Origin: Escherichia phage vB_EcoA_4HA11
Sequence record: MN445184
DNA length: 64,000 bases
Strand: one strand, 5' to 3'
The position numbers and the translations under genes were made by a program. Every line of letters starts with the position of its first letter. Positions within the stretch are counted from its first letter, which is position 1. Shown in pieces: positions 14,554 to 14,871 of this stretch. A model generated the notes under the pieces. That model was given only the letters and a program-made list of their open reading frames with translations, had not been told where the DNA came from and did not search any database.

Positions 14554-14871
14554 TTATTTGCAGAGAACAACGACGAGTTCAGCTAACTCTCCGAGGGTAG
14601 GATCATCTCCATGTTTACCCACCCACTCGTCACTAATTTCTACATCGTACTCTTCTTCGATTTCCATGACCAGCTCAATCATGTCAAGATCGTCACCACC
14701 GAGGTCATTCTTAACCCGTAACGGCGCTAATGCATCGATATTATCATCAATGTTATCAAACTTTTCCTTGTGATCCCCGTTGCGCCAAGTTTCCATGTTC
14801 AGGTTGTCACAAGCGTACTGAGCCAGAACACGCATTACTTCAACATAAGTTGGTTTGTTTGACATAAGCAT
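14554..14871 (-). CDS. acyl-carrier-protein-like protein with Asp replacing the phosphopantetheinylated Ser
   Basis: [27 protein letters not shown] aligns with E. coli ACP [27 protein letters not shown]; Ser position is Asp (codon 14691..14689). Confidence 0.6.
   Translation of the reverse strand: [105 protein letters not shown]

Follow-up and report, generated by a model that had tools for sequence, protein, structure and literature searches.

Why would a phage keep, under what looks like strong selection, an acyl carrier protein (ACP) that apparently cannot be loaded? The question is raised by a small minus-strand gene of Escherichia phage vB_EcoA_4HA11 (sequence record MN445184), found between positions 14554 and 14871 of the 64,000-nucleotide stretch analysed here, which we refer to as the window. 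An initial annotation, made from the letters of the sequence, had described the product as an ACP homologue lacking the serine to which phosphopantetheine (Ppant) is attached, and had suggested that it could be a decoy for host ACP-binding enzymes or a highly acidic mimic. The homology and the replaced serine both stood up to the analysis described below, and by its sequence the protein fails the defining test of a carrier. For its role, the explanation that we tentatively favour, with a probability of roughly 40%, is that of a non-loadable ACP mimic which would occupy the ACP site of a host client, its carboxylate imitating the phosphate of the cofactor.

Homology to acyl carrier proteins and the serine site

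The gene and the elements of its product that carry the argument are the following:

14554..14865, minus strand: coding sequence of the ACP-like protein, 103 amino acids plus stop (from the list of open reading frames, the starts of homologues, Pfam, PHROG, AlphaFold2 and Foldseek results, and dN/dS)
14689..14691, minus strand: GAT codon of Asp59 (Asp61 when counted from 14871), which equals the Ppant-bearing Ser36 of E. coli AcpP in HMMER alignments
14626..14706, minus strand: DLGGD-D-LD motif, helix II ('recognition helix') and acidic loop, residues 54-80, of which 18 of 27 are identical to AcpP D31-E57
14596..14625, minus strand: family-specific insertion W81-x-G-x-x-G-D-D-P-T90, in place of ACP helix III and of the loop leading to helix IV

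A longer open reading frame (ORF), 14554..14871, exists on the same strand; its first ATG, in frame at 14871, would lengthen the protein by Met-Leu. Translation probably starts at the second one (14865, MSNKPTY...), because the homologues and orf142, the counterpart in phage CBA120, begin there. The 4.5 kb round the gene share 99.9% identity with Salmonella phage S117 and 97-99% with many further Kuttervirus genomes (Ackermannviridae, Vi01/CBA120 group). The gene itself is present in 270 phage records, with Salmonella, Klebsiella, Escherichia, Dickeya, Shigella, Serratia and Enterobacter as hosts, and it is usually labelled 'acyl carrier protein' or 'hypothetical protein'.

The relationship to ACPs is seen at several levels. 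The Pfam family PP-binding (PF00550), whose gathering score is 20.8, is matched with 30.7 bits (E 3.9e-7), the match spanning only the C-terminal two-thirds of the model, and ACPs in the Protein Data Bank (PDB) are matched by HMMER with a best E of 5.5e-8. PHROG 4154, named 'acyl carrier protein', is covered in full, residues 3-105 of the protein aligning with profile positions 1-108 of 108 (E 1.4e-56). A structure prediction, which the initial annotation had proposed as a check, leads to the same place: an AlphaFold2 (AF2) model built on 20 family sequences, with a mean predicted local distance difference test (pLDDT) of 86 and a predicted template-modelling score (pTM) of 0.79, found nothing but ACPs among the best 50 Foldseek matches listed against the PDB, with TM scores of 0.57-0.80 normalised to the target. 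No solved structure for any member of the family was found in the PDB. Judged by sequence and model, the phage protein is an ACP homologue with the ACP fold.

The segment that the initial annotation had aligned with helix II of AcpP is present, and the codon that it had read as Asp in place of Ser, 14691..14689, is indeed GAT and aligns with the phosphopantetheine serine of solved ACPs. In the HMMER alignment to the B. subtilis ACP, DLGGDDLD of the phage protein stands opposite DLGADSLD. To follow this site through the family, relatives were gathered by a word-indexed search of 5.8 billion proteins and a full hidden Markov model (HMM) search of 1.84 billion cluster representatives, and further ones were taken from IMG/VR loci and GenBank phages. 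The resulting 42 distinct sequences, down to about 35% identity, extend beyond Kuttervirus to LIMEstone1 (Limestonevirus), members from Klebsiella and Serratia phages, the divergent member of Salmonella phage CRW-SP2, and metagenomic relatives. The serine position is Glu in 27 of them and Asp in 15, with no other residue, and the residues that flank it, D58 and L60, are invariant (42/42). Shorter orthologues from Miltonvirus (DDLNFDELD) and Erwinia phage Bue1 (HFAMDELD) have Glu at the site as well.

That the serine has moved by a position or two, the circumstance under which the initial annotation would have had to be given up, is excluded, since the motif is free of Ser in all 42 sequences. 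The only serines of the window protein, S2 and S78, vary across the family, C19 and C102 are likewise not conserved, and no Ser or Cys is conserved anywhere in it. Because the site is acidic in every relative and no alternative serine is conserved, the protein apparently cannot be loaded in the canonical way. The unloadable ACP of the initial annotation was thus borne out as far as the fold, the acidic site in every relative and the absence of another conserved serine go, and its decoy role is weighed below. No serine codon can turn into GAN with fewer than two substitutions; the acidic replacement therefore appears to be an old and maintained state. That the replacement is constantly acidic argues for a selected carboxylate, and not for the mere loss of the serine. 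The GenBank name 'acyl carrier protein' is misleading for this gene.

The strongest conservation in the family falls on the surface by which an ACP docks on its clients. Six docking residues are present in all 42 sequences (AcpP D35, L37, V40, E41, M44 and E47, corresponding to D58, L60, I63, E64, M67 and E70 of the phage protein), and three more in 41 of 42 (D38, I54 and D56, corresponding to D61, I77 and D79), as is D54; E71, the equivalent of AcpP E48, is Glu in 34 sequences and Asp in 4. The helix itself comprises residues 59-73 in the AF2 model. The importance of these positions in the host protein is illustrated by the finding that neutralising D35, E41 and E47/E48 stops AcpS from modifying EcACP in vivo (bioRxiv 10.1101/2025.01.28.635281). 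The ratio of nonsynonymous to synonymous substitution rates (dN/dS) of the gene is 0.02-0.12 against Kuttervirus orthologues, and in some orthologue pairs the synonymous sites are saturated and the amino-acid identity is still about 90%, which points to strong purifying selection.

The family-specific insertion is conserved too (W81 in 40, G83 in 39, D87 in 41, P89 in 42 and T90 in 40 of the 42 sequences). It is modelled as coil, is absent from the Miltonvirus orthologue, and has a similar counterpart in P0036, P0038 and P0052, three ACP-like proteins from outside the family which are described below. Compared with AcpP of bacterial type II fatty-acid synthesis (PF00550), the phage protein thus shares the helical-bundle fold, with Foldseek TM scores of 0.65-0.80 normalised to ACP targets, as well as helix II, a similar size class and a similar isoelectric point (pI). 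It differs in the Asp/Glu that its family carries for the serine of D-S-L, in about 25 extra residues of loop I, which form short helices, and in the W..G..GDDPT segment that replaces helix III. It also scores far below the cut-offs of the NCBIfam ACP equivalog and subfamily models (35-39 bits against 66-106, in local matches to helix II only; best NF002148 with 38.6 bits, cut-off 71, and TIGR00517 with 36.9 bits, cut-off 70.45).

Another difference is that no carrier-pathway genes are annotated alongside it. No phosphopantetheinyl transferase (PPTase), Fab or Pls enzyme is named in the complete annotation of phage STP55, which is 99% identical here; this negative is annotation-based and involved no exhaustive HMM scan. 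Among the neighbours in the window, Pfam and PHROGs found no PPTase or acyl-ACP enzyme. One STP55 gene carries the name '1-acyl-sn-glycerol-3-phosphate acyltransferase' (locus L037, 42032..42199), and was rejected as a lipid enzyme, being merely a 55-residue transmembrane peptide.

A possible mimic of host acyl carrier protein

How could an ACP that cannot be charged serve a phage? In the explanation that we favour, the protein would be a pseudo-carrier, which keeps the ACP fold and the acidic docking face of helix II and has Asp/Glu in place of the serine-phosphopantetheine. During infection, it would dock on at least one of the proteins whose usual partner is host AcpP; candidate clients are AcpS/AcpH, PlsB, LpxA/D, FabZ, SpoT, MukB and IscS. 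The Asp/Glu, placed at the position of the Ppant phosphodiester, would imitate its charge and could engage the basic residues that hold the phosphate; such phosphate mimicry would explain why Asp/Glu, rather than Ala, Gly or Asn, has been selected. No acyl group would be delivered, and the outcome would be a dead-end complex or, in a client that does not depend on Ppant, a surrogate. The likely effect would be that the phage redirects or shuts off some process of the host, for instance the synthesis of lipids or of the envelope. A decoy or mimic role of this kind fits the conserved docking surface, the purifying selection, and the lack of an annotated PPTase or lipid enzyme in the phage.

ACP bodies without a prosthetic group are known to have effects of their own. 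Apo-ACP inhibits glycerol-3-phosphate acyltransferase and arrests growth, and SpoT binds holo-ACP and not apo-ACP (reviewed in PMC3896788), whereas MukB responds with the same stimulation to AcpP in its apo and its holo form (PMC8602292). The phage protein resembles E. coli apo-ACP in offering such a body for what we propose to be non-productive binding to clients. However, apo-ACP keeps its serine and can be converted by AcpS, whereas the phage protein could at no time be loaded and has a negatively charged residue in that place.

By analogy, the closest functional counterpart is the Ser-less mACP of Plasmodium falciparum, in which a Ser->Phe protein works as a binding subunit (PMC8547962). 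There too, the Ppant serine has been lost, the gene has been retained and constrained, and the acidic helix II has been kept; its acidic residues bind the partner, and the residue that has taken the place of the serine plays a part in the function as well (PMC8547962). The replacement in mACP is a hydrophobic Phe (Cys or Gly in Toxoplasma), which inserts into the LYR protein Isd11 (PMC8547962). In the phage family, by contrast, the replacement is always acidic, the setting is viral, and no LYR-like partner was found among the neighbours scanned, none of which matched the Complex1_LYR domain. An STP55 gene named 'ETC complex I subunit' (locus L035, 29606..30307, 233 residues) was considered as an LYR partner and dropped, its match being a sub-threshold NDUFS4-like one only. 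Outside Apicomplexa, the authors of the mACP study found Ser-less ACPs only in Vitrella (PMC8547962).

Several points weigh against the mimic reading. Stoichiometry is the main difficulty: host AcpP is present at about 100 uM (PMC8602292), so that a simple competitor would need either very high expression or a much higher affinity, and the phage protein would have to act on a low-abundance client or bind with far higher affinity. In addition, the gene seems to lack a separate promoter and is preceded by a terminator-like hairpin, and in almost all Ackermannviridae it adjoins a gene for a protein with a vWA domain, with which it is apparently co-transcribed. Helix II would be conserved in any ACP-like protein with a basic partner, and its conservation does not distinguish a host target from a phage one. 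The phosphate mimicry, finally, is an inference only.

Acidic residues at the serine site are not confined to the Ackermannviridae family. The HMM search also found ACP-like proteins outside it with Asp or Glu at this position, which fall into two groups. The first one consists of proteins of 80-100 residues without a signal peptide, which share the 'G...DDP' insertion (for example P0036, P0038 and P0052); Glu stands at the site in P0052 (locus L026, 5001..5297) and P0038 (L025, 1825..2085). The contigs of two members were read, and both are phage-like and unrelated to Ackermannviridae, one with an HNH endonuclease and ThyX, and the other with a run of small ORFs. The second group comprises proteins of 113-178 residues with a lipoprotein-type signal peptide (lipobox ...GC or ...SC) and motifs of the GADELD, GADDLD and GCDDLD type with Asp/Glu (P0080, P0091, P0095, P0104, P0112, P0131, P0137, P0140, P0142 and P0148). 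These would be exported, unloadable ACP-like proteins; one of this type (L040, 6001..6420) is encoded on a 784-kb bacterial-type contig, beside ArgJ and SDR genes.

Other phages show further variations. The N-terminus of rIIB in Aeromonas phages Aswh_1 (L031, 2965..4209) and ZPAH1 is an ACP-like domain (Pfam PP-binding, E 1.2e-7) with Glu at the site (GDLGLDELD), followed by a helix-turn-helix; such fusions are rare. Protein P0098 of Vibrio phage 277E43-1 (L029, 2980..3513) has Asn at the site and a C-terminal extension of about 100 residues. The Ackermannviridae family resembles the ACP-like proteins known from other phages (PHROG 5934 and others; R6L gp32, phiCbK, an Olleya phage), small proteins of the ACP fold that are usually called auxiliary metabolic genes. 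Nevertheless, gp32 of Erythrobacter phage R6L and the ACP of a Manatee Spring siphovirus keep the serine, unlike this family, P0038, P0052 and the N-terminal domain of the Aeromonas rIIB, which carry Asp/Glu. The acpP of 'Acinetobacter phage MD-2021a' (L030) was discarded as a phage ACP, its locus being a bacterial fabD-fabG-acpP.

A neighbouring gene common to the acidic-site phage ACP-likes was looked for in the loci compared, and none turned up. That such proteins recur in unrelated phages which share no neighbouring gene speaks for a host client that is widely conserved. A wider view would be that the Ser-to-Asp/Glu ACP-likes form an unrecognised class of pseudo-carriers, with which unrelated phages, using stand-alone or rIIB-fused versions, seize a host ACP client such as AcpS, PlsB, SpoT or MukB, and which bacteria use in the periplasm as exported lipoproteins. 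We regard this generalisation, taken as a whole, as speculative and rather doubtful.

The gene is already known and named in databases, and the missing serine is not noted in the papers searched. The literature searched, including an Ackermannviridae review and genome papers, mentions neither the missing serine nor a function of the ACP-like gene. A proteome-scale predictor paper reports a contact between a phage ACP and host FabZ, and this was set aside, as the phage ACP is unspecified and cannot be tied to the Ackermannviridae family. One consequence is immediate: hundreds of phage genomes, many of them from phages of Salmonella, E. coli and Klebsiella of the kind studied with a view to therapy and biocontrol, label as a carrier a protein that seems unable to carry. 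Moreover, Ppant-independent ACP homologues, so far known mainly from apicomplexan mitochondria, would be extended to viruses and, with the lipoprotein group, possibly to the bacterial periplasm. If the protein is a dead-end mimic of holo-ACP, it would point to the ACP client of the host that a large lytic phage gains from blocking. ACP-dependent enzymes are validated targets of antibacterials, and the protein would then also be a naturally occurring, genetically encoded scaffold for inhibitors of them. If the seizure of host clients by pseudo-carriers is true, it would represent a new mechanism of host takeover.

The adjoining vWA protein and other explanations

Could the target be a phage protein instead? 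The most plausible partner is encoded directly upstream, and the transcription signals round the two genes bear on the question:

14909..17125, minus strand: 738-residue protein with a vWA domain and a metal-ion-dependent adhesion site (MIDAS), D24-x-S-x-S ... T97 ... D127 (Pfam VWA, MIDAS conservation, AF2 and Foldseek)
14885..14900, minus strand: GC-rich hairpin with U-tract, putative terminator or attenuator (terminator scan; -13.8 kcal/mol, z -2.95)
14519..14545, minus strand: intrinsic-terminator-like hairpin with U-tract, directly after the stop of the ACP-like gene (-14.7 kcal/mol, z -3.42)
17345..17372, minus strand: sigma-70-like promoter candidate, TTGGCA-16-TAATAT (consensus scan only)

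According to this explanation, the main rival of the mimic reading, which we consider unlikely though deserving of attention, the ACP-like protein would assist a phage protein as accessory subunit, adaptor or chaperone. The vWA protein would be the most plausible one, and the Asp/Glu at the tip of helix II would complete the metal site of its MIDAS. Acidic ligand residues complete the MIDAS site in integrin I-domains. A role as acidic ligand would suit the invariant Asp/Glu. The vWA domain is N-terminal, and its family as a whole has kept the MIDAS residues (DxSxS...T...D). The vWA gene lies directly upstream of the ACP-like one in all 21 fetched loci that reach upstream, distant metagenomic relatives included. 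In the LIMEstone1 record, the vWA protein is a 'confirmed structural protein' of the virion, and mass spectrometry of Sajous1 virions yielded one peptide each for the vWA and ACP-like proteins. That an ACP without the serine can have binding as its dedicated task is seen in Plasmodium mACP (PMC8547962).

The two genes also seem to form one terminator-bounded transcription unit. The ACP-like gene belongs to a long co-directional block of mostly uncharacterised genes, and the 40-nt gap that separates the vWA stop from the start of the ACP-like gene is filled by the hairpin 14885..14900, so that a promoter would find no space there; both hairpins are annotated as terminators at equivalent places in LIMEstone1. 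The nearest promoter-like site upstream is the candidate at 17345..17372, which sits downstream of a terminator at 17413..17386, and a scan of the window found no T4-type late TATAAATA box near the unit. Since terminators flank it and the only upstream promoter candidate precedes a small ORF, the ACP-like gene is probably the last one of a unit made up of the small ORF, the vWA gene and itself, as far as consensus scans can tell. No Ackermannviridae transcriptome covering the gene was found in the literature searched.

Nonetheless, the association of the two genes is looser than these loci suggest. The vWA family is wider, with 504 phage records and 236 proteins, and among 73 IMG/VR loci with a vWA protein the ACP-like gene lies within 6 kb in 22 and is absent from that distance in 51, which weakens the case for the vWA protein as an obligatory partner. 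The 22 loci with both genes are all at the Ackermannviridae-like end of the list, and within the same distance no ACP-like gene was found in T4-like Slopekvirus, Bacillus phage AR9, jumbo phages or the Ackermannviridae-like contig L069; the vWA loci of KP27 and AR9, checked individually, have none. Three ORFs intervene between the two genes in Miltonvirus, and other phage-like contigs have acidic-site ACP-likes with no vWA gene called in the stretch read. Synteny inside one virus family is, besides, weak evidence for an interaction. The AF2 model of the vWA protein (pLDDT 86) resembles proteins that combine a vWA domain with a beta-sandwich (ArnB, the Sec23/24 trunk, ITIH1, pilus adhesins); by Foldseek it contains no known ACP-binding or LYR-like module, and no solved structure among the matches covers its C-terminal ~490 residues. 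The family as a whole ranges over Ackermannviridae, Slopekvirus/Karamvirus, AR9, Rhizobium phages and jumbo-phage contigs of 300-400 kb.

An improbable alternative is that the protein supplements or replaces AcpP where the ACP body is all that a process of the host or the phage requires, such as the activation of MukB, which would uncouple this process from host lipid metabolism. The osmoregulated periplasmic glucan synthesis by OpgH is another process of this kind. The conserved docking surface, the equal action of apo- and holo-AcpP on MukB (PMC8602292) and the decoupling of the Plasmodium mACP role from fatty-acid synthesis (PMC8547962) would all agree with such a surrogate; even so, it seems unnecessary in a host where AcpP is already abundant, and it leaves the acidic requirement at the site unexplained.

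More improbable still is a generic polyanion or DNA mimic of the Ocr/ArdA/Gp5.9 type, which would block DNA-binding defence or repair proteins and for which the ACP fold would be a mere scaffold for charge. Small acidic phage proteins are often nucleic-acid mimics, and the net charge of -17 and pI of 4.1 would suit one. However, canonical AcpP (-15, pI 4.05) is equally acidic, and the phage protein, which the initial annotation had called highly acidic, appears as acidic as AcpP and not more. Its conservation is focused on the ACP docking residues and on one site, not on overall charge, and unlike Ocr and ArdA it has the fold of an ACP, the solved structures listed as its matches all being ACPs and none a known DNA mimic. 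PADLOC, which covers defence and anti-defence systems, returned no match for it.

That the protein is a true carrier after all, loaded at another residue or by unusual carboxylate chemistry, is scarcely credible, as nothing direct speaks for it beyond its GenBank name, PPTases transfer Ppant to a serine hydroxyl, S2, S78, C19 and C102 all vary, T90 occupies the usual helix-IV cap position, and both the lack of annotated PPTase or acyl-ACP enzymes and the low NCBIfam scores count against it. The probability left over by these readings belongs to something not yet conceived.

Neighbouring genes

Some of the genes round this locus have features of their own. Downstream, the ORF at 13669..14172 on the minus strand matches both Pfam Pyr_excise and the PHROG 'endonuclease V N-glycosylase' (DenV-like). 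In CBA120, the same position is taken by orf140 (L001, 9741..10247), 'RNA polymerase ADP-ribosylase' by its RefSeq name, and in a distant relative (L005) Mod_ADP_RT is matched there. Either the annotations conflict or one gene has been replaced by another.

Two related loci contain an inserted NAD-salvage pair of a phosphoribosyltransferase and an NAPRTase (L002, 5027..7542; L008, 2987..5502), which lies upstream of the vWA gene at a distance of a few genes. LIMEstone1 has a short 'nadV' ORF of 333 nt in roughly the same region (L024, 2844..3176), and the window has none. In the window, the minus-strand ORF at 17447..18319 encodes a 290-residue protein with a domain of the N4 gp49/Sf6 gp66 family and a RyR domain, and adjoining it, at 18328..18702 on the same strand, there is a 124-residue DUF3268 zinc-finger protein. 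Both the RyR-domain and the DUF3268 genes are syntenic with the vWA/ACP-like pair in distant relatives.

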